Below are positions 4,114 to 58,497 of a stretch of 64,000 nt of DNA, one piece after another. A program made the translations under genes and the position numbers. Numbering within the stretch: the stretch's first letter is position 1; each line of letters opens with the position of its first letter. The notes below the pieces were generated by a model. That model was not told where the DNA came from, searched no databases, and saw only the letters and a list, made by a program, of their open reading frames with translations. This stretch comes from Enterobacteria phage vB_EcoM_IME341, in sequence record MH051917; one strand, given 5' to 3'.

Positions 4114-4143
4114 GTTTACAAGGTCTATAGGCATGATACTATA
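4114..4143 (+). promoter_or_regulatory. early sigma70-type promoter
   Basis: GTTTACA -35, 17-18 nt spacer, TG-n-TACTAT extended -10, then conserved GACCTATCAA. Confidence 0.6.
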
Positions 4144-4167
4144 GACCTATCAAAACAACAGAGTGAA

Positions 4168-4392
4168 ATGGAGAATAAAATGAAACTTTCTAACCAAGCA
4201 ATCAACATGTTAAACGAAGTTCGTGCAGCTGGTGCTAAATGCCTGATGGTTAACACTCGTGACGGTGACCTTCGTCAAGCATTCGGTGAATTGAAATCTG
4301 CTGACCTGGTTAAATGTTCAGTTGGTATCGGTAACGCACTTCGTGTATCCTTATCCCCTAAAGGTAAAATGTACTTTTTCAACAAAAAGTAA
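4168..4392 (+). CDS. hypothetical protein
   Basis: downstream of early promoter cassette; ATG 4168 or 4180 both in frame. Confidence 0.5.
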   Translation: MENKMKLSNQAINMLNEVRAAGAKCLMVNTRDGDLRQAFGELKSADLVKCSVGIGNALRVSLSPKGKMYFFNKK

Positions 4393-6355: not shown

Positions 6356-6363
6356 TATAAATA
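6356..6363 (+). promoter_or_regulatory. late promoter of lysozyme gene e
   Basis: exact TATAAATA 22 nt upstream of e start codon. Confidence 0.7.
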
Positions 6364-6385
6364 CCTCCTATACTCAGGAGGTATT

Positions 6386-6880
6386 ATGGATATTTTTGAT
6401 ATGTTACGTCAAGACGAAGGTCTTGATTTAAATCTTTATAAAGACACCGAAGGTTATTGGACTATTGGGATTGGCCAGTTGATTACCAAAAACCCTTCAA
6501 AAGATGTTGCTCGTGCCGAACTTGATAAGCTTATGGGCCGGGTTTGCAACGGTCGTATTACTATGGCTGAAGCTGAACAACTCTTTAACCGATCGGTTGA
6601 AAATGCTCGTAGAGCTATTCTGCGTAATCCTAAATTGAAACCTGTTTATGATGTACTGGACGAAGTTCGTCGTTGTGCTTTAATTAACATGGTCTTCCAG
6701 ATGGGTGAAGCAGGTGTAGCTGGGTTCACTAACTCTTTACGTATGCTCCAACAGAAACGTTGGGACGATGCGGCAGTTAACCTGGCTCAATCCCGTTGGT
6801 ATAAACAAACTCCTAATCGTGCTAAGCGCGTGATTTCAACATTTAAAACAGGTACTTGGAAAGCATATGAAAACTTATAA
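6386..6880 (+). CDS. e: endolysin (T4 lysozyme family)
   Basis: 164 aa; [13 protein letters not shown]...[13 protein letters not shown] closely matches T4 lysozyme. Confidence 0.95.
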
Positions 6881-7171: not shown

Positions 7172-7200
7172 GTTTACTTTTACAATAGCTGTGATATAGT
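7172..7200 (+). promoter_or_regulatory. early promoter upstream of denV
   Basis: GTTTAC -35 and TG-n-TATAGT -10. Confidence 0.5.
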
Positions 7201-7229
7201 GTTCTCACACAAACATGGAGAACACTAAA

Positions 7230-7646
7230 ATGACTCGTATTAACCTTACCTTAGTATCTGAATTGGCCGACCAACACTTAATGGCTGAATATCGCGAATT
7301 ACCACGTGTTTTCGGTGCAGTTCGTAAGCATGTTGCTAATGGTAAACGTGTTCGTGATTTTAAAATTAGCTCTACTTTTATCCTTGGTACCGGCCATGTT
7401 ACTTTCTTTTATGATAAGCTTGAATTTTTACGTAAACGTCAAATCGAGCTTATAGCCGAATGTTTAAAACGTGGTTTTAATATCAAGGACACTACGGTCC
7501 AAGACATTAGTGATATTCCTCAGGAATTCCGTGGTGACTATACTCCACACGAAGCTTCTATTGCTATATCTCAGGCCCGTTTGGACGAAAAAATTGCACA
7601 GCGTCCTACCTGGTACAAACATTATGGCAAGGCTATTTACGCTTAA
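7230..7646 (+). CDS. denV: endonuclease V, pyrimidine-dimer DNA glycosylase
   Basis: [27 protein letters not shown]... matches T4 DenV. Confidence 0.9.
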
Positions 7647-8969: not shown

Positions 8970-9180
8970 ATTGACAATTGAAGGCTCTGATGAAGCTCTG
9001 AAGATGTTTGTTGACTGGTTCCACGGACAGGGCGAACAAGGCTTTTTGGAATGTTGGGATGGCGGACGCTGGAATGGTAAAGAAACCGTTTATCCTAGCA
9101 CATATATCTCTGTTCGTGGTGGATATGACGGGATTCATTTAGTTGAATACGATATTGCATCTGATGAGGAAGTGAAATGA
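8962..9180 (+). CDS. hypothetical protein
   Basis: 72-aa ORF, overlap-coupled. Confidence 0.5.
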   Translation: MSKLTIEGSDEALKMFVDWFHGQGEQGFLECWDGGRWNGKETVYPSTYISVRGGYDGIHLVEYDIASDEEVK

Positions 9181-9455
9181 TTGAAGATATTAAGGGTTAC
9201 AAACCACATACCGACGACAAAATCAGTAAAGTGAACGCGATTAAAGATGCTGAAGTTCGATTAGGGTTAATCTTTAAAGCCTTGGAAGAAGAATATGTTG
9301 AAGCCTTTACATGCTCGGGTGTTGACAAAATGAGTGATGAAGAATTCAACCTCACCCATGAACGCCTAGCCCAGATTCGTACGGCAATCGAACGCTTGAA
9401 AGAAGCAAGCATGTGGGCGTGTCGTTCCGTTTTCCAGCCCGAGGAAAAATACTGA
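9177..9455 (+). CDS. hypothetical helical protein (T4 vs-region position)
   Basis: 92-aa ORF, ATGA overlap; position corresponds to T4 vs.3-vs.5 region. Confidence 0.5.
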   Translation: MIEDIKGYKPHTDDKISKVNAIKDAEVRLGLIFKALEEEYVEAFTCSGVDKMSDEEFNLTHERLAQIRTAIERLKEASMWACRSVFQPEEKY

Positions 9456-9664
9456 TGAAAATTGAAAGTTTACAAGATTTCCAGCGTATCATTGGTGAAG
9501 CCTGTACCGGCTACCACAAATACTTGCTTGACGACCAAATGGCTTGTCTCGAAGAAGGTGAAGTACAGTATGCAGCCCAACGCCTTGAACAAGTGAAAGA
9601 GTTTTATCCTGTATTGGTAGAAATTTGTTCAGCTGCTGGAAAACTTACCCCATTCCAAGAATAA
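9455..9664 (+). CDS. hypothetical protein
   Basis: in-frame ATG 9455 overlapping previous stop. Confidence 0.45.
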   Translation: MKIESLQDFQRIIGEACTGYHKYLLDDQMACLEEGEVQYAAQRLEQVKEFYPVLVEICSAAGKLTPFQE

Positions 9665-9668
9665 AGCA

Positions 9669-9698
9669 GTTTACATCTCCTGTAGACATGATACTATA
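9669..9698 (+). promoter_or_regulatory. early promoter upstream of regB
   Basis: GTTTACA -35, TG-n-TACTAT -10; spacer pairs with downstream SD. Confidence 0.6.
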
Positions 9699-9725
9699 AA
9701 CCTATCAACTACAGGAGATTACAAA

Positions 9726-10184
9726 ATGTCAGAAATTAATTCAGAAGTATTCATCCGCCGCAACAAATTACGTCGTCAGTTCGAAACCGAATTCCGTGAA
9801 CTGAATGCGTCCATCAAAAAAGCCGCCATTAAGAGCGGTGTCCCAGCCTTCTTTATTAAGTACTCTAATCACTTGTTGGACCGTGCTATCCAACGTGAAA
9901 TCGACGAAAAATACGTTTTTGCTTTATTCAAGCAACTCCATAACCATGTTAAAGAAATCCACGAATTCTTAATCCAGGAACCTCTGCCTGATGTAGAATC
10001 CGAAATTGTCCCTGGTAAAGTGTATCGTCCATTGCGTCTCGAAATTACCGATAAAACCTTATGGCTAGGTATGACAGTAGACCGTAAACATCCTGATAAA
10101 GGATATTCCCTTAAATGTCGTATGGCATTTGTTAACTCTAAACGTTTAGAAGGTAAAACCAGCACTAAAGTAATCTATCTTTAA
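9726..10184 (+). CDS. regB: RegB site-specific endoribonuclease
   Basis: 152 aa; EVFIRRNKLRR...HLLDRAIQREIDE matches T4 RegB. Confidence 0.85.
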   Translation: MSEINSEVFIRRNKLRRQFETEFRELNASIKKAAIKSGVPAFFIKYSNHLLDRAIQREIDEKYVFALFKQLHNHVKEIHEFLIQEPLPDVESEIVPGKVYRPLRLEITDKTLWLGMTVDRKHPDKGYSLKCRMAFVNSKRLEGKTSTKVIYL

Positions 10185-10196
10185 TAATGAGGTCTC

Positions 10197-10736
10197 ATGA
10201 AAAAAGTATTAGCCACTTTACTATTGACAGTTAGTATGTCTGCCCATAGCGTAGAGCCTACTTTCAGTAATGAACAACTCGATAATTTACATTACGCGTA
10301 TGCTTTCGGTGAACAATACCAAAAGTCGGGAAAGTTCAAAGAAAACCCTAATCAAAAAGGATTAGGATATATCATGGCCGGATTACTATGGCAGGAATCA
10401 TCCGCCGGAATTAATCAAGGTTTAAATAAAGATAAGCACCATGCTTATGGCATGTTCCAAAATTACTTGCCTACGTTAAGAAGTCGTGTTCAACAGGTAG
10501 GTTGGAAGATGTCAGACAAAGAAATAATTCGTATGGTCCAAAAACGACAGAACAGTGCCTCTTGGGCCTACATTGAGCTGTCTTATTGGATTGATGTTCA
10601 CAAAGGTGACCTGAGAAAAGCGATTGCTTCTTATAATGCGGGCTGGAACGTCAAAGCAGGCAGTAAGTATGCTTCTGAAGTTCTAGAAAAGGCCAATTAC
10701 CTAAAATCTAAAAAGATGTTTGAGGCGGTATATTAA
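10197..10736 (+). CDS. secreted lytic-transglycosylase-like protein
   Basis: signal peptide MKKVLATLLLTVSMSAHS; LLWQESSAG SLT-like motif; T4 vs.1 position. Confidence 0.55.
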   Translation: MKKVLATLLLTVSMSAHSVEPTFSNEQLDNLHYAYAFGEQYQKSGKFKENPNQKGLGYIMAGLLWQESSAGINQGLNKDKHHAYGMFQNYLPTLRSRVQQVGWKMSDKEIIRMVQKRQNSASWAYIELSYWIDVHKGDLRKAIASYNAGWNVKAGSKYASEVLEKANYLKSKKMFEAVY

Positions 10737-11093
10737 ATGATTAAGCAGATGACTATAGCGCTTATGTTGATCGCTCCGGGAGTATTAGCGTCACAAGTTG
10801 ATGATAGCAATAATTCAATTGTTGAGTATGCTACCCGCACAGCAAAAGATTATTGTCATCCAAGTAATACTGAATGCGTTATCGAATTCAGTTCAAAAAT
10901 CACAGCGGCTTTTAAAGATGGACAGAACGACGTAGAGCATCGCAGAATGAAAGAGAAAACTCTTTCTAAAAGGTACGAGCAACGTCTAAACGTTACTGAA
11001 TGTGTTCCATCTGATAAAAAGTACAAAGAAATGTGTGCGTCTATGGTAGACAGACTCGTTGACTCATACAACCGAGGATTAAACTCTAAATGA
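10737..11093 (+). CDS. secreted Cys-containing protein (T4 vs position)
   Basis: signal peptide; 118 aa; position of T4 vs. Confidence 0.45.
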   Translation: MIKQMTIALMLIAPGVLASQVDDSNNSIVEYATRTAKDYCHPSNTECVIEFSSKITAAFKDGQNDVEHRRMKEKTLSKRYEQRLNVTECVPSDKKYKEMCASMVDRLVDSYNRGLNSK

Positions 11094-11557
11094 TTATTGA
11101 TTATATTAAGGGCGATATAGTCGCCCTGTTTCTTCAAGGTAATAATGTTGCACACGGGTGCAATTGTTTCCATACAATGGGTTCAGGTGTAGCCGGACAA
11201 TTGGCTAAGGCTTATCCGCCTATTCTCGCTATCGATAAAACCACTTATTTAGGTGGGGTAGAAAAACTTGGCACGTTTACCCAAGCCACAGGTAATAATG
11301 GCCAAATTTGCTATAATCTTTATACGCAATACGAACCTGGCCCTAATCTTGATTATGGTGCTTTAGTAAACTGTATGATAGAATTAAACCGTACCGCAAA
11401 GGGTCTTTTGTTTAAACCCAGAATTTATATTCCTCGCATCGGTTGTGGTATTGCTGGTGGTGATTGGGACAAGGTTTATCAATTGATTAATTTGTTTACT
11501 CCTGATATTAATTTAGTGGTGGTAGATTATGAAAGCCCATTACCCACATCCGTTTGA
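11090..11557 (+). CDS. macro-domain protein (ADP-ribose binding/processing)
   Basis: GDIV...HGCNCF...MGSGVAGQ and ...IPRIGCGIAGGDW match macrodomain motifs. Confidence 0.6.
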   Translation: MIIDYIKGDIVALFLQGNNVAHGCNCFHTMGSGVAGQLAKAYPPILAIDKTTYLGGVEKLGTFTQATGNNGQICYNLYTQYEPGPNLDYGALVNCMIELNRTAKGLLFKPRIYIPRIGCGIAGGDWDKVYQLINLFTPDINLVVVDYESPLPTSV

Positions 11558-11741
11558 CCCTAAAAACAAAGCGGAAATTATTCGACGCTGGACCGAAACC
11601 CGAGTAACCAAATGTCCTATAAAAAGTCAACACAACACCGATAAATGGTATATCGGTGAATACGTTGAATATACTTTTATAGATAAAAATAAACGTAAAC
11701 ATCATGTAGAAGAATATTGCTTAAAGGTGCAATGGCTATGA
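11529..11741 (+). CDS. hypothetical protein
   Basis: 70-aa ORF overlapping end of macro gene. Confidence 0.4.
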   Translation: MKAHYPHPFDPKNKAEIIRRWTETRVTKCPIKSQHNTDKWYIGEYVEYTFIDKNKRKHHVEEYCLKVQWL

Positions 11742-11923
11742 GTCTGAGTAAAGAACAGAAAGATAAATTGTTTGAGCTTATCCATGAGCTTTTGGATGAG
11801 CATACAGAAGCAAACGCCTTTTATGATGAATACGGTCCAATAGATGCCGAACATCAGGAAGAATTTGCCAATCGATTTGATGAGAAAGAAAATGAATTAA
11901 TAGCTTATGTAAATAGTCTTTAA
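11732..11923 (+). CDS. hypothetical acidic protein
   Basis: in-frame ATG 11732; 63 aa. Confidence 0.45.
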   Translation: MAMSLSKEQKDKLFELIHELLDEHTEANAFYDEYGPIDAEHQEEFANRFDEKENELIAYVNSL

Positions 11924-11932
11924 GAAGGTAAT

Positions 11933-12505
11933 ATGGCCCAACTTTATTTTCACTACGCAGCAATGAATTCCGGGAAGACCGCTTCATTGCTAACAGCCGC
12001 TCATAACTACAAAGAACGTGGTATGGGCGTACTTCTTTTAAAGCCTGCGATAGACAATAGAGAATCAAGCCATAGCATTTCGTCTCGTATAGGGATTAGC
12101 CAAGAGGCTAATGCAGTGACTCCAGATATGGACCTATACGAGTTCTATCGTTGGGCTGAATCTCAAAAAGATATCCACTGCGTGTTTGTGGATGAAGCAC
12201 AGTTCTTAGAACCAATACAGATAAAACAACTGGCAAAGATAGTAGACAATTATAATGTTCCAGTTATGTGCTATGGGCTAAGAACTGATTTTCAGGGTAA
12301 ACTGTTTCCTGGTTCTGCTGAATTACTCGCTACAGCAGATAAACTCGTTGAGTACAAAGGTGTGTGCCATTGTGGACGTAAAGCTACTATGACGGCTCGT
12401 ATCCAAGATGGTATCGCAATTAAGGACGGTGACCAAGTTTCTATAGGTGGCAACGATTCTTACGTGTCATTGTGCAGGAAGCACTGGATAGAAATAACGA
12501 GTTGA
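11933..12505 (+). CDS. tk: thymidine kinase
   Basis: MAQLYFHYAAMNSGKT P-loop start and C-terminal Cys cluster typical of Tk. Confidence 0.9.
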   Translation: MAQLYFHYAAMNSGKTASLLTAAHNYKERGMGVLLLKPAIDNRESSHSISSRIGISQEANAVTPDMDLYEFYRWAESQKDIHCVFVDEAQFLEPIQIKQLAKIVDNYNVPVMCYGLRTDFQGKLFPGSAELLATADKLVEYKGVCHCGRKATMTARIQDGIAIKDGDQVSIGGNDSYVSLCRKHWIEITS

Positions 12506-13547: not shown

Positions 13548-13552
13548 TCAAA

Positions 13553-13578
13553 GGTCTCACTTCGGTGGGACCTTTTTT
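13553..13578 (+). terminator. intrinsic terminator
   Basis: GGTCTCAC-TTCG-GTGGGACC hairpin plus T6. Confidence 0.7.
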
Positions 13579-13587
13579 CGTTTAGGT

Positions 13588-13617
13588 GTTTACATCCTCT
13601 AGGAACATGATACTATA
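13588..13617 (+). promoter_or_regulatory. early promoter
   Basis: GTTTACA -35, TG-n-TACTAT -10, conserved GACCTATCAA downstream. Confidence 0.6.
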
Positions 13618-13644
13618 GACCTATCAACTAATGAGGAAAACAGT

Positions 13645-13881
13645 ATGAAACTTACAAGTACTACGGTTTCATTAGAATATGAAATCAACGGTCGTATCCT
13701 TGAGATTAAGATATTCGACGACCGAAGTATCTTTGCCGATTATCGAGGATACAGAATTCGTCTGGAAAAGGACGAGCTCAAGGAACCGTGGCTCCTTAAA
13801 GACACATTAAAGGGTTGTGGGTGTAAACTGAAAACCACCCAAGCCCAAGAATTAATTTCTACTATCAACAAATACTGGTGA
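13645..13881 (+). CDS. hypothetical protein
   Basis: first ORF after early promoter cassette at 13588. Confidence 0.5.
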   Translation: MKLTSTTVSLEYEINGRILEIKIFDDRSIFADYRGYRIRLEKDELKEPWLLKDTLKGCGCKLKTTQAQELISTINKYW

Positions 13882-15151: not shown

Positions 15152-15604
15152 ATGATTATCAATACAAACTCTTGGCACGTTAAATTACACGACCGTTTTT
15201 ATGACCGTCATTCTCGACCGCACTCTTTATGTGCTTACTTCTGGAAAATGGTTTGGGCCTGTTTTGCTTGTGCTGTTGTTGCAGGTAGTACGCTTTTTGG
15301 ATTAACTGTTGCAGGCGCTGGTGTATTAGAGCATTTCTTTGTATTAAGTACCCCTGTTCTGTTGAGTCTAGGGTTTGTTTTAGGGTTGATTACGATAGCT
15401 CTTATTATTGCGCTATCCATTGGTTTGGCATTCGGTGCGATGAATTTACACGCATGGTATGATGCCCGTAGAGAAGAAAAGGAATGGCAACGTATTCAAG
15501 CTGAGCGTGAAGGCCGAGAAACTAAAGAAAACGTTGTCATCCAATATATTAAAGCTCGTAAATCTAAGGTCTGCCCTGTAATCCACTTCGAGAACAAAGA
15601 ATGA
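15152..15604 (+). CDS. hypothetical membrane protein
   Basis: 150 aa with multiple TM helices. Confidence 0.5.
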   Translation: MIINTNSWHVKLHDRFYDRHSRPHSLCAYFWKMVWACFACAVVAGSTLFGLTVAGAGVLEHFFVLSTPVLLSLGFVLGLITIALIIALSIGLAFGAMNLHAWYDARREEKEWQRIQAEREGRETKENVVIQYIKARKSKVCPVIHFENKE

Positions 15605-16611
15605 GAACAGTTATGAAAGGCTACTTCGGTAGCCACCTTTATGGAACAAGTACTCCGGAATCTGATGTCGATTTTAAAGAAATCTTTGTTCCACATCCGC
15701 GTGATATTCTGTTAGGTACGGCTATGAACCATACCAACCTGAATACGAATAACACCGCTTCCAAAAACACTAAAGATGATGTTGACCACGAGCTTTATAG
15801 CCTGAAATATTTCTTTAAACTAGCGGCTGAAGGCGAAACCGTTGCTCTGGACATGATTCATACTCCACCTGAACTGGTGGTTAAATCTGATTTACCTGAT
15901 GTATGGAAATTTATCCAGGATAACCGTTCACGGTTCTATACAACCAACATGAAAGCCTATTTAGGGTACGTCCGTAAGCAAGCTTCTAAATATGGTGTTA
16001 AAGGTTCTCGTCTGGCTGCTCTGCGTGGTGTACTGGCTATTGTTAACCAGATTCCTGAACAGTGGGTCGATTATCAAGAAGATGGTTCGACTAAGCAACG
16101 TCGCTCTAAGGTGGAAGATATCAAACATCGGCTCCCTGAAAACGAATTCTGTGAATGGGTATTCCATAACCATGAGAAAACAGGTCCTCAAACGTTTTAT
16201 ACTGTTCTCGGACGTAAATACCAAACCACTCTGTCATTAATCGAGCTCAAGCAATCTCTGAATAAGCTCGATGCGGAATATGGTGAACGTGCTCGTAAGG
16301 CTGAAGCCAATGAAGGTATTGACTGGAAAGCTCTGAGCCATGCTTATCGTGCTGGTTATCAGTTGAAGGAAATCTATCAAACAGGTGACCTGGTTTATCC
16401 GCTTAAAAATGCTTCTATTATTAAAGCAATAAAAGCAGGTGATATGCCTTTTAAAGTGGTCCAAGGGCTGTTGGAAAATATTGTTGATGAAGTCGAAGTC
16501 CTGGCTATCCAGGCTCATAAGAACGGTATGCCTGAGAAGGTAGATATGAAGTTCTGGGACAAGTTCGTTGAAGAGGTGTACCTTGACAACCACAACGCTT
16601 ATTACCGCTAA
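15601..16611 (+). CDS. pol-beta-superfamily nucleotidyltransferase-like protein
   Basis: N-terminal GSHLYGTSTPESDVDF fits G-S-x(9-13)-D-x-D NTase motif; 336 aa. Confidence 0.6.
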   Translation: MRTVMKGYFGSHLYGTSTPESDVDFKEIFVPHPRDILLGTAMNHTNLNTNNTASKNTKDDVDHELYSLKYFFKLAAEGETVALDMIHTPPELVVKSDLPDVWKFIQDNRSRFYTTNMKAYLGYVRKQASKYGVKGSRLAALRGVLAIVNQIPEQWVDYQEDGSTKQRRSKVEDIKHRLPENEFCEWVFHNHEKTGPQTFYTVLGRKYQTTLSLIELKQSLNKLDAEYGERARKAEANEGIDWKALSHAYRAGYQLKEIYQTGDLVYPLKNASIIKAIKAGDMPFKVVQGLLENIVDEVEVLAIQAHKNGMPEKVDMKFWDKFVEEVYLDNHNAYYR

Positions 16612-16806
16612 AGAAGAAATTAACGTCTTTCTATCGTATGGAAGACCTCATAAAACTCGACGTTGGTATCTTGAAGCCGTCTGTAAAGAAACCGGACGTC
16701 GAGTCAATATCAAGTACGCATGCAAACCTACGCCTAAACAGACAAGACGATTTGTTAACTGGGCTATAAATGATATCCGCTTCTATAATTTTTGGAGCGC
16801 AATTTA

Positions 16807-16828
16807 GGAACCTTCGGGTTCCTTTTTT
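16807..16828 (+). terminator. intrinsic terminator
   Basis: GGAACC-TTCG-GGTTCC hairpin plus T6. Confidence 0.7.
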
Positions 16829-16847
16829 GGGTTTAGTGCAAAAAGGT

Positions 16848-16877
16848 GTTTACAACCTCGTAGAGCATGATACTATA
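16848..16877 (+). promoter_or_regulatory. early promoter
   Basis: GTTTACA -35, TG-n-TACTAT -10, conserved GACCTATCAA downstream. Confidence 0.6.
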
Positions 16878-16924
16878 GACCTATCAAATAAATGAACTGA
16901 AACAACTTAAAACGGAGATACAAA

Positions 16925-17179
16925 ATGAATATTAAAGCACCTTTCGCCGGTAATGTTATTCGTGAAGATTCAATCGAAATCAACGGTGTGGTAGTTAAAG
17001 CGGTTTTAACTGATATCAAAACCCTGGTTAAAGTTGATTACTTAACCTTTAATTTCGAAAACATTGAAGGTTATATTAATTTCCCACCAAGCATTAAAAT
17101 GCATGTACGCCATGAAACTTGGTCTAAAGCAGATCAGCAAAAAGCAGTAGATTTTATTATTGAGTTCTTCTCAAAATAA
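16925..17179 (+). CDS. hypothetical protein
   Basis: 84-aa ORF downstream of early promoter cassette. Confidence 0.5.
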   Translation: MNIKAPFAGNVIREDSIEINGVVVKAVLTDIKTLVKVDYLTFNFENIEGYINFPPSIKMHVRHETWSKADQQKAVDFIIEFFSK

Positions 17180-17182
17180 GTG

Positions 17183-17210
17183 TGTACATATGCTTTAAAC
17201 GTGTTATTAT
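17183..17210 (+). promoter_or_regulatory. putative promoter upstream of AAA+ ATPase gene
   Basis: TGTACA -35-like and TATTAT -10; TGCTTTA MotA-box-like motif overlaps. Confidence 0.4.
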
Positions 17211-17247
17211 AGACCTATCAAATCTACTGAGTGAAATGGAGAATATA

Positions 17248-18228
17248 ATGTTAACTATCAAAATCAACAAAGGTATCTATCGCGGTAATGAAATCTCTGG
17301 TACGTTCATGAGTTCAGGTAAAACCTGGTTCCCTAATAAAATTCATGAATCCGAAGCTCACCTCGGTGATGGCAAGGTATTCGTACAGATTGATGGTGTT
17401 GAACGTGGTGTATGGGTGTTCAAATGTGACGTTGAAATGGAAGGTGCTGAAGCTCCTGTAGTGGTTACTGAATCCGCTGAAGAAATGAAACATCGCATCA
17501 ACAAACGTTTTAAAGTAATGAACATGATGACTAACGGAATCATCGATGGTAAAATTCGTTCCCTTATCATCTCTGGTGCCGCAGGTATTGGTAAAACGTA
17601 TTCTTTGGATAAAGCATTACAGAATGCCCATGAAAATGAAACTATCGAATATAAATCAATCAACGGAAAGATTAGTGGAATCGGTCTTTACGAGCAGCTT
17701 TGGAATAACCGCGGCCCTAATAGTGTTCTTCTTATCGATGATGTTGATGTATTCTCTGATATGGATATCCTGAACCTGTTAAAAGCAGCATTGGATACCG
17801 GTGAAAAACGTAAGGTGTGCTGGAGCACTTCAAGTTCTTACCTCGATGATAAAAATATCGATAAAGAATTCGAATACGAAGGCACCATCGTGTTCATCAC
17901 CAACGTTGATATTGACCGTGAATTAGAACGTGGAACTAAACTTGCTCCACACCTCCAGGCTTTAGTATCTCGTTCAGTTTACTTAGACCTCGGAGTTCAC
18001 TCTAACGAAGAGATTATGGTTCGTGTTGAAGACGTTATCCTGTCCACTGATATGATGCAAAACCGAGGTCTGTCTGATGCTGAGACCTATCAAGCTTTAG
18101 CATGGATGAAGGCTAATGTATCTCGTCTTCGTAACGTATCATTACGTACAGCTCTTTATCTAGCGGACTTCATTGCCACCGATAAAAATGACTGGAACGA
18201 AATCGCTGAAGTTACCCTTCTGAAATAA
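17248..18228 (+). CDS. AAA+/P-loop ATPase
   Basis: Walker A GAAGIGKT and Walker B VLLIDDVD; in-frame ATG 17248. Confidence 0.6.
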   Translation: MLTIKINKGIYRGNEISGTFMSSGKTWFPNKIHESEAHLGDGKVFVQIDGVERGVWVFKCDVEMEGAEAPVVVTESAEEMKHRINKRFKVMNMMTNGIIDGKIRSLIISGAAGIGKTYSLDKALQNAHENETIEYKSINGKISGIGLYEQLWNNRGPNSVLLIDDVDVFSDMDILNLLKAALDTGEKRKVCWSTSSSYLDDKNIDKEFEYEGTIVFITNVDIDRELERGTKLAPHLQALVSRSVYLDLGVHSNEEIMVRVEDVILSTDMMQNRGLSDAETYQALAWMKANVSRLRNVSLRTALYLADFIATDKNDWNEIAEVTLLK

Positions 18229-18581: not shown

Positions 18582-18611
18582 TGTTTACATCTCCAGTAGA
18601 AATGATACTAT
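18582..18611 (+). promoter_or_regulatory. early promoter
   Basis: GTTTACA -35 and TG-n-TACTAT -10. Confidence 0.6.
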
Positions 18612-18637
18612 AGACCTATCAACTACTGGAGGTTATC

Positions 18638-19162
18638 ATGAACGCTAAAGATATTTTTTCACTGATTAATTTCAACAACGGTAATTTCAAATCTGAAAAA
18701 CAAAGCAAGTTCTTTAACGACGTTGCTTGTGGTAATGAGATTACCGTATCTGGAGGAGAGATTTACAAAAGCCGTTGGAACTGGATTGCTATCATCGATT
18801 CAGTTGGTATTGTAGAGCTCTATAAAAACACTAACAAAAAACGTATTCTTTACTGGAGTCGTGAAAACAATCAAGCTTATCAAGCTGAACGTAACAAACG
18901 TTTAATGCCTACTGAATCTGACCTGGCAAACGTTAAATCTGATATCGCTTATTTCGATAATCTGATTGCCGAACAACAAGCAGTTATTGATAAGTTTGAC
19001 GAAATCAAAGCTTGTAAAGAGATTCCTGAATTCATGCGGGAATCAGTAAACGAACAGTACGCCCTCACTTCAGGTCGTATCGAGCAGTACAAATCACAAC
19101 GAGCTGAACGCCAAGCTCTGCTTCAGAAATTTGAAGAGCGTTTAAAGACGGTTCTCGCATAA
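18638..19162 (+). CDS. hypothetical protein with C-terminal coiled coil
   Basis: 174-aa ORF after early promoter cassette. Confidence 0.55.
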   Translation: MNAKDIFSLINFNNGNFKSEKQSKFFNDVACGNEITVSGGEIYKSRWNWIAIIDSVGIVELYKNTNKKRILYWSRENNQAYQAERNKRLMPTESDLANVKSDIAYFDNLIAEQQAVIDKFDEIKACKEIPEFMRESVNEQYALTSGRIEQYKSQRAERQALLQKFEERLKTVLA

Positions 19163-21201: not shown

Positions 21202-22212
21202 ATGACTCGTACTGAATACATTAATGCCTTTACTACTTATATCACTGCCAATACCCCTCCATTAACCCCATATGTGGTAATAGTTTCTAATATCAATAAA
21301 TGGGTCGACCAAATTGATGATGCATTATCGCGCTGTTTCAAAGCTGAAATCGAAAAGATTGCAGGCCGTTTGTGCATTCATGATATCATTAAAACATTTA
21401 AAGGTTCTCGACTGCTTTCGCGACTGGTCAATAAGGACATCCTTTCAGAGTTTGGCAAAGAGAAACATCCGGGTTCTAGCCATGCTGTTAGCTACAAATG
21501 GTTTGGTGATACCATAAAAAGTTATATCAAAATTAAAGGTATGGACCCTAGTAGTTTATTTCCGCAACGTTGGGTTACCGAATTCAAGGCTAACTCTGCA
21601 TTAATTCTCAAAGCGGCCTCTAAAACTATAGTTTCCGGTGATTGTCGTACTATTCACCCGATGGCTAATTGCATGATTAAAACAAATAGTTATAAAGGAA
21701 AAGCTATTATTTCTGTTATTTGGTCACCTAATAGGAAACCTAAAGATGATGCGGAAGTTGTAAAGTATCAAGATATTGCTTACGATACCTTGAATACTAT
21801 CGAACAAGCTTTAGCTCTGATGGATACCGTAGAGAAATATGAGACCCAAGAAGTTAAACACCACTTAGGCTGGAAAGGATATGAAGTCTTAGTAACAGTT
21901 CGCGAAATCAAATGTACTGTTCCAAAAACTGATGCTGAAATTTACCAAGAAAAATGTGAGGAAATTGTGAATACTGATAAAGAGCCTGCAACATTAGAAG
22001 ACTTGATTAACGACTTGAACAGCCCTATCATGGCCCCTACACCAATTACTAAATCCAAGTTACCAGAAATCGTTGCCTTAGAAAAAGCGTATAAAGATGC
22101 CCTGGCTATCAACAAAAAACTGACCGGACAATATACTGCTGCCAAGAAACTTTGGGAAGAGTCTACCAATCGTTTAGACCGTCTTGAACAGGCTCTGGAG
22201 CTGCTGAAATGA
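21202..22212 (+). CDS. hypothetical protein with C-terminal coiled coil
   Basis: 336-aa ORF after early promoter. Confidence 0.55.
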   Translation: MTRTEYINAFTTYITANTPPLTPYVVIVSNINKWVDQIDDALSRCFKAEIEKIAGRLCIHDIIKTFKGSRLLSRLVNKDILSEFGKEKHPGSSHAVSYKWFGDTIKSYIKIKGMDPSSLFPQRWVTEFKANSALILKAASKTIVSGDCRTIHPMANCMIKTNSYKGKAIISVIWSPNRKPKDDAEVVKYQDIAYDTLNTIEQALALMDTVEKYETQEVKHHLGWKGYEVLVTVREIKCTVPKTDAEIYQEKCEEIVNTDKEPATLEDLINDLNSPIMAPTPITKSKLPEIVALEKAYKDALAINKKLTGQYTAAKKLWEESTNRLDRLEQALELLK

Positions 22213-22520
22213 AACAACGTTTAGCTGAAGATATTGCTTCAACAACCAATACCGGTTTATTGAAATTTATTAAAGCCGAGGATGTTGAAGTTGAATTGGT
22301 TGGTAAAATTCATGGCTGTGATGAATATAGTGATGCTGTTAATTGGGATGCTGTAATGGCTATGGTCGCACGCCGCGAGCAAGCTTCTAAGAATGTACCA
22401 AACTGTCCTGAGTGTGGTACAGAACAGGTCCAATTGGTCCATTGGCAGACTAGTAATCTTCGTTACAAATGCCGTCATTGTAAACACAAATTTGAGCGAG
22501 ACGAAAATGGCAAAGCGTAA
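22209..22520 (+). CDS. zinc-ribbon protein
   Basis: CPECG...CRHCKH four-Cys motif; ATGA overlap. Confidence 0.5.
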
Positions 22521-23761: not shown

Positions 23762-23935
23762 ATGAGTACCAAAATTGAAGTTGGCCGTCATAAAGGCCGT
23801 CTGATTGAACATTCGCTTTACGAGTTGTCGGATTCAGGTTCTTTACCTGACCTAGAATCCGATTTGATTAAAGCTGCGGCCGATTATATTCATTGGCTTG
23901 AAGCTCAACTTCGCTTTTCCGATGAGGCCTTCTGA
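23762..23935 (+). CDS. hypothetical small protein
   Basis: 57 aa downstream of early promoter at 23692; not in ORF track. Confidence 0.35.
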   Translation: MSTKIEVGRHKGRLIEHSLYELSDSGSLPDLESDLIKAAADYIHWLEAQLRFSDEAF

Positions 23936-24237
23936 TGAATTTATTTGAATTTGAAGGTAAAACTGTTCGTATTACTGAAGAAGATGTCGACCATTATGTT
24001 GACTGGCCTGAATTAAATGGTAATCGTGGTTTTGAGTCAGGTGAGCTCTGTGAAGGCGCCGAAGTTAAAATCCTTAAGGTGGAAATGTCTCCATGGGGCG
24101 ACCCTGAAATCATCGGCGTAACTGCTATCGAATTCAATGGTAAGGTATACGAATACACTAAAGAAATGTTTGAAGATACTAAAGCTTCATTCTGGTGTTT
24201 TTGGACCAACGATGATAATGAATTTGAGGTCGCATGA
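23935..24237 (+). CDS. hypothetical protein
   Basis: 100-aa ORF, overlap-coupled. Confidence 0.5.
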   Translation: MNLFEFEGKTVRITEEDVDHYVDWPELNGNRGFESGELCEGAEVKILKVEMSPWGDPEIIGVTAIEFNGKVYEYTKEMFEDTKASFWCFWTNDDNEFEVA

Positions 24238-24410: not shown

Positions 24411-24539
24411 TATGGATGCTCTTATTACGGTATTTTGGGTAGGAGTTGTTTTATTCGGATTGTTGTTAGTGCTAAGTTGCACTGCTAAACTATTAGGATA
24501 TTAATAAATACCCTTATCTAATAATGGTAAGGGTTTATT

Positions 24540-25013
24540 ATGTTGTTGACCGGCAAATTATACAAAGAAGAAAAACAAAAACTTTATGATGCACAATGTG
24601 GTAAGTGTTTGATTTGTAAACGTGAATTAAACCCTGATGTTCAAAGTAACCACCTTGACCACGACCACGAGTTAAACGGGCCAAAAGCCGGTAAGGTTCG
24701 TGGTTTACTATGTAACCTGTGCAATGCTGCAGAAGGACAAATGAAGCATAAGTTCAACCGTTCTGGTCTTAAAGGTCAAAACGTTGACTACCTCGAATGG
24801 TTAGAGAATTTGCTGGTCTATCTGAAAGCTGATTATACTGAAAACAATATTCATCCTAATTTCGTTCCTGATAAAACCAAAGAGTTCAGCAGGTTGGGTA
24901 AGGAAGAAATGATTGCTGAAATGCTTTCACATGGAATGACTTATAATGAATCTGCTACTAAGAAACAAATGGTCGATTCGTTTAAAAAACAACTGAGGAA
25001 ATCGCTTAAATGA
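24540..25013 (+). CDS. 49: endonuclease VII (Holliday-junction resolvase)
   Basis: MLLTGKLYKEEKQK...LDHDHELNG...CNLCNAAEG matches T4 gp49. Confidence 0.9.
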   Translation: MLLTGKLYKEEKQKLYDAQCGKCLICKRELNPDVQSNHLDHDHELNGPKAGKVRGLLCNLCNAAEGQMKHKFNRSGLKGQNVDYLEWLENLLVYLKADYTENNIHPNFVPDKTKEFSRLGKEEMIAEMLSHGMTYNESATKKQMVDSFKKQLRKSLK

Positions 25014-25942: not shown

Positions 25943-25971
25943 GTTTACTTCCTCTCCTCACGTGTTATAGT
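25943..25971 (+). promoter_or_regulatory. early promoter
   Basis: GTTTAC -35 and TG-n-TTATAG -10. Confidence 0.5.
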
Positions 25972-26000
25972 CTATCCTATCAACACATGAGGAGAACATT

Positions 26001-26183
26001 ATGACTATCCAAGATAAAGAAATTAAAGCCGACCAGTATTATTTGGTAAATGGGCGTGCGGTTCGTGTAATTGCTGCTAGCGATTCAGACGTATGGTATC
26101 GTGTACTGGACCATAGAAATATTCCATTGATGGTATGTGACCGTAGTTTGTTTTGTTCGATAGCTAAGGAAATTAAATTATGA
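26001..26183 (+). CDS. hypothetical protein
   Basis: 60-aa ORF after early promoter 25943. Confidence 0.45.
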   Translation: MTIQDKEIKADQYYLVNGRAVRVIAASDSDVWYRVLDHRNIPLMVCDRSLFCSIAKEIKL

Positions 26184-29625: not shown

Positions 29626-29799
29626 ATGACGAATTCGATGGATTTTGATAAGATTAAATCTGACAAAAATGAGATGTTGCTTCAATTTGAAGCCGCTCGT
29701 ATTAAAGCAGAAAATGAAGGTACTATTACCTATAAGCCTATCAAGTTCAGGTCTAATCACGAACCTCTGTACGGTGTATTAGTTGGTAAAGGAGCTTAG
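29626..29799 (+). CDS. hypothetical small protein
   Basis: 57 aa, SD AAGAGG; stop overlaps terminator hairpin; not in ORF track. Confidence 0.3.
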   Translation: MTNSMDFDKIKSDKNEMLLQFEAARIKAENEGTITYKPIKFRSNHEPLYGVLVGKGA

Positions 29800-29810
29800 G
29801 CTCCTTTTTT
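29791..29810 (+). terminator. intrinsic terminator
   Basis: GGAGC-TTAG-GCTCC hairpin plus T6, overlapping stop codon of small ORF. Confidence 0.6.
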
Positions 29811-39362: not shown

Positions 39363-39599
39363 ATGGAAGCTTTAATCGTTAGTGCTGGTGTTTTAGGATT
39401 TGGTTCTCTGGTTATTATGTTCATCGGTTACTTTTTACCATGGATTTTAGCTCTTCTGCGAGGCACTCGTAGTAATGTAGGAATTTTCTTCCTTAATCTC
39501 CTGTTGGGTTGGACGATGATTGGTTGGGTAGTGGCTTTAATCTGGGCTATCGTCGCTGAACGTAAATCAAACGCACAAATCATTATCGTTAAGCAATGA
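39363..39599 (+). CDS. imm: superinfection immunity protein (Imm-like)
   Basis: 78 aa, two TM helices; position immediately after gene 43 as T4 imm. Confidence 0.55.
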   Translation: MEALIVSAGVLGFGSLVIMFIGYFLPWILALLRGTRSNVGIFFLNLLLGWTMIGWVVALIWAIVAERKSNAQIIIVKQ

Positions 39600-39733
39600 A
39601 AATAATTATTTTATTTCTTATAATGGCTGCCTTTACCGTTTATTGGGCAGTGGCAATTCCGCCAATGATTCCGACACTAATCATCGGATGGATTATTCTT
39701 ATAGCACAAATTAAGTATAACTGTTTTAATTGA
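39596..39733 (+). CDS. micro-ORF, membrane peptide
   Basis: 45 aa hydrophobic, ATGA overlap with imm stop; not in ORF track. Confidence 0.3.
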   Translation: MKIIILFLIMAAFTVYWAVAIPPMIPTLIIGWIILIAQIKYNCFN

Positions 39734-46158: not shown

Positions 46159-47582
46159 AAACTATTTTGGCTCAACTGCTAGGCAATAGTGATTATTTCA
46201 CTAAGGTCTGGCCTTATATGAATGATTCATATTTTGACCAGGGTCCTGCAAAGACCCTTTTCAAAGAAATTAAAAAACACGTCAATGAATATAATGCAGT
46301 GCCTTCTAAGAACGCATTGAGCATTGCATTAGATAACAGTACGCTTTCAGAAGTTGAACATCAAGGCGCTAAAGAGCTTTTAAGCTCACTGAATGCTGGA
46401 CCTGAAGACCAAGAATGGTTGGTTAAAGAGACGGAGAAATACGTTCAGAAAGCAGCGATGTATAATGCAACTTCAAAAATCATTGAAATCCAAACTAATG
46501 CCGACCTTCCGGTTGAGCAACAAAATAGAAAACTTCCAGGTATTGGTGCTATTCCAGATATCATGCGTGATGCATTATCGATTTGTTTCGATTCTGAATT
46601 AGGTCATGACTGGATGGATGACTATGAAGAACGATTCAAAAGTTATTCCGATAAAGCACGTAAGGTTCCATTCCGTCTTAATATTCTGAATAAGATTACC
46701 AAGGGCGGTGCTGAGTTTGGTACTGAAAACGTATTGTTGGCAGGAACAAACGTAGGTAAGTCTCTTGGGCTGTGTTCATTGGCTGCTGATTACCTTCAAT
46801 CCGGATACGATGTTCTTTATATCTCCATGGAGATGGCAGAGGAAGTATGTGCTAAGCGTATCGATGCCAACCTTCTGGATGTATCACTGGATGATATCGA
46901 TGATGGTCACGTCTCTTGGCCTGAATATAAAGCTAAGATGGATAAATGGCGTTCAACTGCTACTTTAGGTCGTTTAAAGATTAAACAGTATCCTACCGGT
47001 GGTGCTAATGCCGATACATTCCGAGCATTATTAAACGAATACAAGCTCAAACAAAACTTTGTCCCACAGGTCGTTATCGTCGACTACTTGGCCATCTGTG
47101 CATCATCTCGTACGAAAGTTTTCTCTGAAAACAGTTATGGATTGATTAAGATGGTAGCCGAAGAACTACGTGGACTTGCAGTAGAGAAGAAATTATTGTT
47201 GTGGACTGCAGCCCAGACTACTCGTGGTGCGAACGTTGCCGCCGAAATCGATATGGCTGATATTGCTGAATCCTTTGGTATTGCACATACTGCCGACTTC
47301 ATGTTGGGTGTGGTCGAGACAGAAGAGTTTGCCCAGATGGGTATGCAGATGGTTAAGCAGCTTAAATCTCGTTATGGCGATAAGAGCTACTACAACAAAT
47401 TTAAGATTGGTGTTAAGAAAGGAAATCAACGTTGGTACGAAGTTGAAGATGATTCCAATCCGGGTCCAGTGAACACTGTTCGTGAGGCTACAGGTGAGAT
47501 GAATCGTCAAGCCGAGGTCAATCGACAGACGCGTGTTAATAGAAGTGATTTGGATGATTTAGCAGCATCTATCAAATTTTAA
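46152..47582 (+). CDS. 41: replicative helicase gp41 (DnaB-like)
   Basis: Walker A GTNVGKS; strong match to T4 gp41; GTG start inferred (46143 or 46152). Confidence 0.93.
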   Translation: MVETILAQLLGNSDYFTKVWPYMNDSYFDQGPAKTLFKEIKKHVNEYNAVPSKNALSIALDNSTLSEVEHQGAKELLSSLNAGPEDQEWLVKETEKYVQKAAMYNATSKIIEIQTNADLPVEQQNRKLPGIGAIPDIMRDALSICFDSELGHDWMDDYEERFKSYSDKARKVPFRLNILNKITKGGAEFGTENVLLAGTNVGKSLGLCSLAADYLQSGYDVLYISMEMAEEVCAKRIDANLLDVSLDDIDDGHVSWPEYKAKMDKWRSTATLGRLKIKQYPTGGANADTFRALLNEYKLKQNFVPQVVIVDYLAICASSRTKVFSENSYGLIKMVAEELRGLAVEKKLLLWTAAQTTRGANVAAEIDMADIAESFGIAHTADFMLGVVETEEFAQMGMQMVKQLKSRYGDKSYYNKFKIGVKKGNQRWYEVEDDSNPGPVNTVREATGEMNRQAEVNRQTRVNRSDLDDLAASIKF

Positions 47583-47602
47583 GGAGCTTCGGCTCCTTTT
47601 TT
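47583..47602 (+). terminator. intrinsic terminator after gene 41
   Basis: GGAGC-TTCG-GCTCC hairpin plus T6. Confidence 0.7.
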
Positions 47603-47611: not shown

Positions 47612-47641
47612 GTTTACATCTCCTGTAGGCGTGATACTATA
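47612..47641 (+). promoter_or_regulatory. early promoter
   Basis: GTTTACA -35, TG-n-TACTAT -10, GACCTATCAA downstream. Confidence 0.6.
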
Positions 47642-47664
47642 GACCTATCAACTTGGAGAACAAA

Positions 47665-47982
47665 ATGAAAACCATCGACTGTAAAGCAGAATATAAAGTG
47701 TATTACCACGGAAGTTGTAGTGTTGCTAATATCGGTAATATGCTTTGTCCTCCTGAGGAAACAGGAGTTCTGTCTGAAACTGGTCGTAAGAAAAACCTGA
47801 ATCGTGTGTTCTTTACTGAAGATATCGGTTTGGCTAAGATTTATGCTGGACGTGCAGCTCGTTCAGTGGGAGGAGAACCTCGTCTTTATCGTGTAATTGC
47901 TCCGGTAGATGTGGTTTGTTTAAATGATACTAAAGGCGCTACGGTTTATCATGCTGAATGGGCCTTCTGTGAGGAAATCTAA
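47665..47982 (+). CDS. hypothetical protein
   Basis: in-frame ATG 47665 after early promoter. Confidence 0.5.
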   Translation: MKTIDCKAEYKVYYHGSCSVANIGNMLCPPEETGVLSETGRKKNLNRVFFTEDIGLAKIYAGRAARSVGGEPRLYRVIAPVDVVCLNDTKGATVYHAEWAFCEEI

Positions 47983-48559: not shown

Positions 48560-48590
48560 GTTTACAACGGTCTATGGTAGTGATACTATA
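48560..48590 (+). promoter_or_regulatory. early promoter upstream of sp
   Basis: GTTTACA -35, TG-n-TACTAT -10, GACCTATCAA downstream. Confidence 0.6.
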
Positions 48591-48617
48591 GACCTATCAA
48601 CTAACGAGGAGTTAAAA

Positions 48618-48911
48618 ATGAAAAAGTTATTAATCGCAGCAATCCTTACAGTAGCATCATGTGGCACGGCTCCAGTTACGGCTGGATTGGATAAAGACCT
48701 TTGTGAATGGTCTATGACTGCAGACCAAGAATCGGTTGAACATCAGATTTATGCTGATATCATGAACATCACTAAACGCGACCGCCCTGATATGGCTAAA
48801 GAAGTGTCAGACCAATTAGCTTCAGGTGGCGTTATGCAATATAACTATGTTTTGTATTGCGATGCCAATTTCGATAACAAAAATATCGTTAAAGAGGTGA
48901 CAGGTGAATAA
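48618..48911 (+). CDS. sp: Spackle periplasmic protein
   Basis: 97 aa with signal peptide; CEWSMTADQ...GGVMQYNYVLYCD matches T4 Sp. Confidence 0.8.
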   Translation: MKKLLIAAILTVASCGTAPVTAGLDKDLCEWSMTADQESVEHQIYADIMNITKRDRPDMAKEVSDQLASGGVMQYNYVLYCDANFDNKNIVKEVTGE

Positions 48912-51175: not shown

Positions 51176-51266
51176 GTTATCCTCCTGTTAAATTATTATT
51201 TATTCGCTTTAATTTAACAGTTTATAATTATCTAACTTATTAATGAATTGAAAAAGGAAAAATATA

Positions 51267-51790: not shown

Positions 51791-51798
51791 TATAAATA
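51791..51798 (+). promoter_or_regulatory. late promoter of soc
   Basis: exact TATAAATA about 30 nt upstream of soc ATG. Confidence 0.7.
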
Positions 51799-51829
51799 CA
51801 CCTGTAATTAAACAACAAAGGAGTTTATT

Positions 51830-52066
51830 ATGGGTGGTTTCGTTAATATCAAAACCTTCACACATCCAGCTGGTGAAGGCAAAGAAGTTAAAGGTACTGA
51901 GGTTTCGGTCCCGTTTGAGATTTATTCAAACGAGCACCGTATTGCAGACTCTCATTATCAGACTTTCCCTTCAGCCGTTGCAGCCTACTCAACCGTAGTG
52001 ACTGATGCTGCTGACTGGAAGACCAAGAACGCAGCAATGTTCACGCCTACACCAGTAAGTGGTTAA
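51830..52066 (+). CDS. soc: small outer capsid protein Soc
   Basis: VNIKTF...HYQTFPS...AAYSTV matches T4 Soc; TATAAATA late promoter upstream. Confidence 0.85.
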   Translation: MGGFVNIKTFTHPAGEGKEVKGTEVSVPFEIYSNEHRIADSHYQTFPSAVAAYSTVVTDAADWKTKNAAMFTPTPVSG

Positions 52067-52075
52067 ATAATTTAA

Positions 52076-52101
52076 GGAATCCTTCGGGATTCCTTTTTTT
52101 T
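52076..52101 (+). terminator. intrinsic terminator after soc
   Basis: GGAATCC-TTCG-GGATTCC hairpin plus T8. Confidence 0.75.
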
Positions 52102-53534: not shown

Positions 53535-53722
53535 TGGACTTATTTGATATGTTTGTCATTCCGGACCCTGAGCCTGAAACAACTCAGGAGCCGCCTGTTG
53601 ACCTCGTCAACGAACTTGATATGATTATACAGAAGCATGGTTTTAAGTTGCCTAAAGATGTTCTTAGTGACCTAGCTTCTTATTACTTAGACCCTCCTCC
53701 ATGGGCTCCTTGGGTAAAATAA
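53534..53722 (+). CDS. hypothetical acidic protein
   Basis: 62-aa ORF. Confidence 0.45.
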   Translation: MDLFDMFVIPDPEPETTQEPPVDLVNELDMIIQKHGFKLPKDVLSDLASYYLDPPPWAPWVK

Positions 53723-53750: not shown

Positions 53751-53777
53751 AATGACCTCTAAATCACTGGAGGTCAT

Positions 53778-58470: not shown

Positions 58471-58497
58471 CTACCCTATCAACATGAGGAGAACAAA

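Follow-up and report, generated by a model that had tools for sequence, protein, structure and literature searches.

We investigated the early promoters in a 64,000-nucleotide (nt) stretch of Enterobacteria phage vB_EcoM_IME341 (sequence record MH051917; henceforth the window), and identified a subset in which promoter DNA lying upstream of the predicted transcription start encodes a complement of the Shine-Dalgarno (SD) sequence of the following gene. One member of this subset, at 9669-9728, is by its sequence the early promoter of the endoribonuclease gene regB, and one copy of a repeated cassette of the promoter early stem-loop (PeSL) type. Sequestration of the SD by predicted stems is well supported computationally for this defined subset, and extends to phage T4. 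We consider it on balance probable that these stems permit translation only of RNA started at the gene's own early promoter; where the start sites lie, that read-through RNA exists and how translation is affected are what we infer.

The window comes from a Dhakavirus, a JS98/IME08-like T4-type phage of the Tevenvirinae, and over 9000-12000 it shares 97.8% identity with Escherichia phage IME08, with the alignment running in reverse orientation. Following the IME08 annotation, the window lies between the e.6 region and gene 39, and its early genes are on the + strand, as are all of its cassettes described below.

The regB promoter cassette

The regB cassette comprises a GTTTACA -35 element (9669-9675), an extended -10 element, TGA TACTAT (9689-9697, hexamer 9692-9697), and a conserved CCTATCAAC box (9701-9709) that holds the predicted transcription start, A9704. 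It is positioned 41 nt 5' of the regB ATG (9726), and the gene that it serves (9726-10184) encodes the RegB endoribonuclease of 152 amino acids (aa). The 10-mer TCTCCTGTAG (9676-9685), which lies in the -35/-10 spacer and consists of an anti-SD CUCC and 5 further nt, is the exact reverse complement of the 10-mer CTACAGGAGA (9709-9718), which includes the SD GGAG (9714-9717); the complementarity that the initial annotation had reported here is thus exact.

The start was placed at the A of ATCAAC (9704), the 7th nt after the -10 hexamer, following the T4-type early consensus of T at -7, A at -11 and a C-rich -3 to -1 (PMC1524935). Because this predicted start falls within the loop of the hairpin, with the 5' arm upstream of it, local transcripts would lack the 5' arm and read-through transcripts would carry it. 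The stop codon of the upstream open reading frame (ORF; 9662-9664) ends 4 nt before the -35 element, and since no terminator fits between the two, read-through into regB is expected.

The extended -10 TGATA (9689-9693) is additionally complementary to TATCA (9703-9707) of the conserved CTATCAAC box, so that each fold of the consensus cassette contains an inner stem of 5 bp, at the same positions in other cassettes, and with a T4 counterpart of TGGTA/TATCA containing one G.U pair. This inner pairing may be one reason for the conservation of the +1 box. We also noted that regB of IME08 is annotated as 552 nt (183 aa; 21921-22472), with a start upstream of the promoter cassette, and that T4 RegB has 153 aa. 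The start given for IME08 in the database probably lies some 31 codons too far upstream, the ATG at 9726 being the one that has the SD.

Census and classes of early promoters

The repeated promoter module noticed in the initial annotation is real: GTTTAC-N14-18-TACTAT has nine + strand matches in the window (4114, 9669, 13588, 16848, 18583, 47612, 48560, 54347 and 55086), against 0.06 expected. Its literal form, GTTTACA-N17-TG-n-TACTATA, matches no cassette, as the spacing had been miscounted. The core layout is TTTACA, a spacer of 16-17 nt ending in TGA, and then TACTAT; the fuller consensus runs from an A-rich upstream region through GTTTAC followed by A or T, a spacer of 16-17 nt, TGnTAYTAT and the CCTATCAAC box to the SD and ATG. 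With up to two mismatches, the GACCTATCAAC box has 24 matches, against 14.6 expected, and the CTATCAAC relatives that had been placed near 21146, 25943, 54347 and 58442 are present, at 21147, 25944, 54348 and 58443.

A broader scan identified 24 intergenic early-type promoters on the + strand, each with A-rich flanks and with an SD and a start codon downstream. These promoters are named by the coordinate of the -35 element (for example 9669/9670 and 18583/18584), and all are predicted from sequence. Four of the 24, which we term class A, have a spacer arm that pairs onto the SD: 9670 before regB, 18584 before nrdC.8, 25944 before a 60-aa ORF, and 58443 before motB.2. Two others, 7173 before denV and 53726 before a modB-like gene, reach the same SD target from a 5' arm in the -10/discriminator region. 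Masking of the SD is weak or bulged in about three (13589, 47613 and 21147). In class B (4115, 48561, 27071 and 59763) the spacer arm pairs with the -10 end and the +1 region and the SD is free, and the remaining promoters have spacer-internal stems or nothing obvious.

Complementarity and predicted folding

The mean spacer::leader duplex over the 24 promoters was -8.6 kcal/mol, compared with -5.4 for shuffled spacers (best of 1000 shuffles -6.6) and -6.5 for non-cognate spacer::leader pairs, and none of 5000 permutations was as good as the cognate pairing (p<2e-4). Perfect helices of 8-10 bp over the SD occurred at 4 sites, against 0.36 expected. The 23 promoters of T4, taken as an independent genome, gave -10.9 kcal/mol for cognate versus -7.1 for permuted pairs (0/5000). 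When 190 unique promoter-like cassettes were pooled, strong duplexes (-15 kcal/mol or lower) covering the SD were found in 17% of cognate and 1.8% of non-cognate pairs, and strong class B duplexes in 5.3% and 0.1%, respectively. The spacer-SD pairing that had been ascribed to "many copies" of the module therefore exceeds chance but was overstated, with strong spacer::SD pairing in 4 of the 24 promoters and two more cases from the discriminator; of the arm pairs listed besides that of regB, all three helices are real, but their coordinates were 2-6 nt out of register.

The four class A cassette RNAs have predicted folds of -18.3 to -21.1 kcal/mol (z -3.6 to -6.4), within the range of -14 to -21 kcal/mol for the cassette stems overall, whether class A, class B or discriminator-arm. 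Beginning at the predicted start, the class A RNAs are unstructured (z -0.4 to +1.0), and so are those of the discriminator-arm promoters 7173 and 53726. The predicted unpaired probability of the SD, over the 24 promoters, is 0.24 in read-through and 0.45 in promoter-proximal RNA (Wilcoxon p = 9e-5), and is close to 0.0 in the long RNA at 9670, 18584, 25944, 58443, 7173 and 53726. The folding comparison suggested in the initial annotation hence came out in its favour, with long RNAs predicted to be stable over the SD and promoter-proximal ones not. An Rfam search of the 64 kb gave no match at gathering thresholds, and only chance snoRNA-like matches (E 2-8) around 9600-9800.

Covariation and conservation in related phages

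Within IMG/VR, TACTATAnACCTATCAA is concentrated in five or six Dhakavirus genomes of about 155-170 kb, with many copies in each. Among paralogous cassettes the middle of the stem varies, with matched changes on both arms (TG/CA, AG/CT, AT/AT and TCATG/CATGA): TCTCC-TG-TAG pairs with CTA-CA-GGAGA, there are variants with -AG-/-CT- and -AT-/-AT-, and further matched arms are TCTCCTCATG/CATGAGGAGA and TCTCCTCTGGTT/AACCAGAGGAGA. In an alignment of 13 sequences, hand-picked as class A examples, 91.5% of cells were paired, versus 77% after partner shuffling (0/500); changes on both sides were found in 6 of 10 stem pairs, the covariation score was 0.417 versus 0.157 (0/500), and slid registers of the alignment gave 40-58% pairing.

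The SD of regB is masked in Dhakavirus, in T4 and in three other lineages, with a different stem in each. The T4 stem, UCCUCUUGACUG / CAGUUAAGAGGA, has 12 bp with one G.U pair; one further lineage, with a genome of about 158 kb, has UUCUCCUCUUUAU / AUAAAGAGGAGAA; and two more have an outer anti-SD/SD stem and an inner stem enclosing the -10, the latter covarying between them (AGGGCTAT/ATAGCCCT versus GGGCCAT/ATGGCCC). In one lineage the regB stem is of class B alone. We additionally identified three different SD-masking stems at motB.2 across genera, and two at nrdC.8, along with one class B lineage for this gene; at denV, the arm lies in the spacer in T4 and other Dhakaviruses, and in the discriminator in this phage. 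As far as these sequences tell, regB, motB.2, nrdC.8 and denV keep SD masking across genera, T4 included, with different stem sequences.

A proposed role in restricting translation

Within the subset, the promoter DNA upstream of the predicted start encodes the anti-SD arm, in the spacer for regB, nrdC.8, the 60-aa ORF and motB.2, and in the discriminator instead for denV and the modB-like gene. The predicted start lies 18 nt or more past the spacer arms, and only 0-1 nt past the discriminator arms of 7173 and 53726. Polymerase arriving from upstream would transcribe both arms, and the resulting helix of 10-13 bp, with a predicted stability of -14 to -21 kcal/mol, would sequester the SD, so that read-through RNA would be translated poorly. 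Polymerase starting locally would begin in the hairpin loop, about 5 nt before the 3' arm, and would yield an unstructured, translatable leader. The net effect would be to confine protein synthesis to the short time in which the gene's own early promoter fires.

Should this hold across the Tevenvirinae, including T4, early promoters would be systematically built into hairpins, and the ribosome-binding site would be open only on RNA from the own promoter; we put this wider proposition forward tentatively, as possible rather than probable. If true, it would amount to a promoter-encoded licence for translation, and would help to explain how the patterns of immediate-early and delayed-early proteins differ, and why proteins such as RegB are shut off tightly.

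Read-through RNA might otherwise be translated through coupling, in which ribosomes ending the upstream ORF open the stem, and downstream translation from read-through RNA needs upstream translation. At all four class A sites, 10-11 nt separate the end of the upstream stop codon from the 5' arm, a distance near the reach of a terminating ribosome, as judged from ribosome footprints. However, this spacing is fixed by the -35 element, and the arm lies just outside the expected footprint; we regard coupling as extremely unlikely.

Terminators, and hairpins that miss the Shine-Dalgarno sequence

Strong intrinsic terminators on the + strand of the window were found at 13550-13575, 16806-16823, 29788-29807, 47581-47598, 52074-52095, 61536-61551 and about 63600-63625, most of them having a T run and a tetraloop of the UUCG or GCAA type. 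The promoters that directly follow terminators (13589, 16849, 47613, 52112 and 63645) have weak or no SD masking.

We considered the class A and class B stems themselves as intrinsic terminators, and rejected this, as they have no U tract: their tails (UUACAAAA, GUUAUCAU, ACAUUAUG, CAAAAUGA and UAUCAAAA) contain 1-4 U in 8 nt, and the terminator scan flagged none of the stems, while it flagged the nearby UUCG-loop terminators. The stems are not classical terminators; attenuation by other means is possible.

Attenuation or termination of upstream RNA is the role given to such stem-loops in the original PeSL view, by which the overlap with the SD would be incidental to a short leader. In the assay of Arbiol et al., one PeSL stem-loop placed before lacZ cut expression as much as the rrnB T1 terminator, and this result counts against a purely translational role. 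A single attenuating role would, moreover, cover both classes, since class B stems avoid the SD and are as stable and conserved as class A stems. Yet the lacZ assay cannot separate termination from translational or polarity effects, the stems lack the U tracts of terminators, and at denV and the modB-like gene a 5' arm in another position pairs over the SD, which suggests that the SD itself is the target. We therefore hold attenuation with incidental overlap to be unlikely. Under the proposed masking of the SD, untranslated read-through RNA might be exposed to Rho-dependent polarity; this is speculation, and such polarity would explain how a stem without a U tract could behave like a terminator in the reporter assay.

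Besides the lacZ result, several further observations speak against masking of the SD as the general function of these hairpins. Strong masking is found in just 6 of the 24 promoters. The idea in the initial annotation, that the SD is sequestered in read-through RNA only, agrees with the predicted geometry and folding, with the covariation and with the orthologues, but would apply to about a quarter of the early promoters and not to most. The class B hairpins (4115, 48561, 27071 and 59763 here; ipI, ipII and dmd in T4) leave the SD free and are equally striking and conserved; and because many cassette hairpins miss the SD, its masking is not the sole role of promoter-embedded stems. The covariation set, by its choice, describes class A and not all promoters, and the ratio of G.U pairs to A.C mismatches in the stems, taken as a gauge of selection on RNA as opposed to DNA, is 7:3 (p = 0.17), a small count. 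Finally, an inverse relation between an upstream terminator and SD masking was not significant among 47 promoters of this phage and T4 (1/8 versus 7/39, Fisher p = 1.0); each of the seven clear UUCG-loop terminators lies before a promoter with weak masking, in numbers that are too small. As a group, the promoter-embedded hairpins need a broader or a second explanation.

RegB sites and RNA processing

The hairpins could instead be elements of RNA stability or processing, which keep RegB or other RNases away from the GGAG in polycistronic RNA, or guard the 3' end of the preceding message. The leaders conform to the RegB site GGAGRAYARAA (GGAGAACAAAA at 58443 and 47613, for example), RegB requires single-stranded RNA and is blocked by structure, and the SD of T4 regB is the site of RegB autoregulation. 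However, T4 denV has the same cassette, and its resistance to RegB was traced to the sequence 3' of GGAG and not to structure; an A-rich tail grafted onto T4 denV led to RegB cleavage in vivo. Both results weaken protection from RegB as the main role. Class B stems, in addition, are without GGAG, and stems of 10-13 bp are too short for RNase III. A role in stability or processing appears quite improbable to us.

Individual cassettes in the window

The remaining class A cassettes have the same layout as that of regB. Before the nrdC.8 homologue (18583-18640), the arms are CTCCAGTAG (18591-18599) and CTACTGGAG (18623-18631), with a predicted fold of -18.3 kcal/mol (z -3.6). Before the 60-aa ORF, which starts at 26001 (cassette 25943-26003), they are TCTCCTCAcGTGT (25953-25965) and ACAcATGAGGAGA (25983-25995), with one C/A mismatch (-21.1 kcal/mol, z -6.1), and before motB.2 (58442-58500) they are TTCTCCTCATG (58448-58458) and CATGAGGAGAA (58483-58493; -19.4 kcal/mol, z -5.4).

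At the denV promoter (7172-7232), the discriminator arm UAGUGUUCUC (about 7197-7206) is predicted to pair with GGAGAACACUA over the SD (-16 kcal/mol, z -3.7; z +1.1 for the short transcript). At the promoter of the modB-like gene (53725-53780), the 5' arm GACCTC (53754-53759) follows the -10, ahead of the predicted start, and its partner over the SD is GAGGTC (53770-53775; -14.3 kcal/mol, z -4.0). Two cassettes with weaker masking have a terminator upstream: at 13588-13647 the pairing is a weak or bulged TCCTC-TAG / CTAatGAGGA, downstream of the UUCG terminator at 13550-13575, and at 47612-47667, a degenerate class A cassette with a type-1 spacer, only TCTCC/GGAGA pairs, downstream of the terminator at 47581-47598.

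In the class B cassette at 4114-4182, the spacer sequence GGTCTATAG (4122-4130) pairs with CTATAGACC (4139-4147) around the -10, and the SD is free (-16.5 kcal/mol, z -4.4); that at 48560-48620 has an 11-bp stem (48569-48579 / 48584-48594) with a GUGA loop, which encloses the -10 (-17.5 kcal/mol, z -3.7). The spacer of promoter 54348 (54349-54370) has a small hairpin of its own, CAAG-GAGG-CTTG, which carries a sense GGAGG and not an anti-SD, and which was flagged by the terminator scan. Similar spacer-internal stems, CCAC...GTGG, were found at two other promoters of the window (39303 and 52112) and at two of T4 (50972 and 2457).

Modular shuffling of cassettes

The initial annotation had also suggested that the repeats offer homology for modular gene shuffling, and this fits the comparison with IME08, where indels fall at cassettes. 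Three of ten breaks are at cassettes, with edges inside them at 13629-13650, 17202 and 53720-53726; by our own estimate about 0.5 edges would be expected there by chance, as cassettes make up about 2.4% of the window. By cassette 13589, with a 22-nt overlap at 13629-13650, IME08 carries one more ORF than the window, and it has 236 extra nt that end exactly at the -35 of promoter 53726. A 597-nt stretch of the window (16605-17201) is without match in IME08. Within it, a terminator and cassette 16848 are followed by an ORF of 84 aa (16925-17179) and by the first part of another cassette (17183). The two cassettes flank this ORF (16848-17250), a layout that looks, in sequence, like a PeSL-flanked mobile ORF. 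Elsewhere, the mobE homing-endonuclease gene of IME08 (15240-15923) is absent from the window (51203-51255), and small ORFs at 23935-24237 and 39596-39733 are present here and not in IME08.

The nrdC.8 cassette of JS98 is chimeric, with a type-3 spacer (TCTCCATTAG type) and a type-2 leader (CTACTGGAGG type), and has a U/C mismatch that breaks one pair; this appears to reflect recombination within the -10/CTATCAAC core. The cassette-linked indels and the chimera fit the published PeSL recombination model.

The T4 denV cassette (NC_000866, about 65412-65356, - strand) reads TTTACA tctcctgtaggtatga TACTAT agacctatcaactacaggaga. It has its stem arms, -10 hexamer and CCTATCAAC box in common with the Dhakavirus regB/denV cassette, and a few bases differ, in the spacer and after the -10; denV of the window (7173) has another promoter. 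A like cassette before a different gene in a different genus suggests that cassettes have been exchanged across genera.

The inverted repeats might accordingly be substrates of recombination at the DNA level, or be inherited by the copying of cassettes, with no RNA function selected. The shuffling of cassettes, the JS98 chimera, the likeness of the T4 denV cassette to that of Dhakavirus, and the three indel edges inside cassettes are all consistent with this. Copying alone, however, accounts neither for double changes that compensate each other nor for stems that differ between orthologous genes. Several stems, those of T4 regB, T4 nrdC.8 and IME08 nrdC.8 among them, include G.U pairs, which sense RNA tolerates and DNA or antisense RNA does not, although they are few, and the JS98 chimera breaks a pair, indicating that the stem is worn away by recombination and not made by it. 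That the repeats act in DNA alone, or are simply copied, seems to us very unlikely.

Significance

If confirmed, masking of the SD by promoter-encoded arms would add a post-transcriptional layer to the T4 early programme, and PeSL stem-loops would gain, besides recombination and attenuation, a concrete role that can be tested. Expression of regB, denV, motB.2, nrdC.8 and similar genes would then be set by which promoter made the RNA, and not by RNA abundance, and RNA-seq coverage would overestimate the expression of these genes in the middle and late periods. As T4 carries the same architecture, a test is feasible in a model phage. A promoter whose spacer silences the translation of read-through RNA would, if the reading is true, also provide a compact design rule for synthetic operons.

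Comparison with known systems

PeSL cassettes combine an early promoter with a stem-loop that lies between or overlaps the promoter boxes, and have been read as terminators or attenuators and as recombination sites (PMC2839356, PMC4122927). The initial annotation was correct in treating such cassettes as established in T4-type genomes (PMC2839356, PMC4122927). Like those described by Arbiol et al. 2010 (PMC2839356) and Comeau et al. 2014 (PMC4122927), the cassettes of this phage are repeated intergenic modules of early or hyperplastic regions, and have an A/T-rich upstream region, a strong sigma-70-like early promoter (here predicted), a stem-loop, an SD and an ATG. Their stems likewise lie between the -35 and -10, over the -10 or just before the start, and they are linked to indels and ORF swaps between close relatives. 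In contrast, the published stems consist of G-runs and C-runs (RB49/phi1) or lie upstream of the promoter (PST/T4), and were interpreted as terminators or attenuators, whereas in a subset here the 3' arm is the SD itself. The word "translation" has no occurrence in the 2010 PeSL paper (PMC2839356), and the legend of the 2014 PST figure (PMC4122927) puts the PST stems upstream of the promoter, whereas T4 also has promoter-embedded stems, which are absent from that legend.

Sequestration of the SD is itself known from T4, where a 2010 review of post-transcriptional control lists it for e, soc, 49, I-TevI and homing-endonuclease genes only (PMC3014915). As in e, soc, 49 and I-TevI, the 5' arm would lie upstream of the local start and the 3' arm covers the SD, and long transcripts are masked and local ones open (here predicted). 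Unlike in those genes, the internal promoter is of the early sigma-70 type instead of a gp55 late one, its -35/-10 spacer or discriminator holds the arm, and expression is predicted to be limited to the earliest period and not delayed. The late promoter TATAAATA is not found in the early cassettes, and is present at e (6356) and soc (51791). Gene e served as a positive control, with the late promoter TATAAATA and an SD-hiding hairpin, ACCUCCU...AGGAGGU (6356-6388, + strand; -14.1 kcal/mol); the T4 hairpin lowers lysozyme synthesis from long transcripts about 100-fold (PMC3014915), and the stems of the early promoters are predicted to be at least as stable as the gene e hairpin. We also noted a 9-bp stem at gene 49 (24505-24542), with a 3' arm that holds the SD just before the ATG, and TATAAATA 36 nt before the ATG of soc (51791-51832).

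Two other systems share parts of this design. The masked SDs resemble RegB target sites (GGAGRAYARAA; PMC1702504) in consisting of GGAG and an A-rich tract, and regB is among the masked genes; RegB sites are, however, a sequence feature of single-stranded leaders, to which the hairpin here is additional. The stems are stable intergenic hairpins on the coding strand, as are intrinsic (Rho-independent) terminators, but they have no U tract, the -10 lies within their long loops of about 23 nt, and the genuine UUCG-loop terminators are separate from them. We found no description of early-promoter spacer::SD pairing in the literature searched, a scope that excludes older papers on T4 early promoters. 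The arrangement is thus a combination of two known features of the T4 family, the PeSL cassette and translational masking of the gene e type, with an early promoter in place of the late one.

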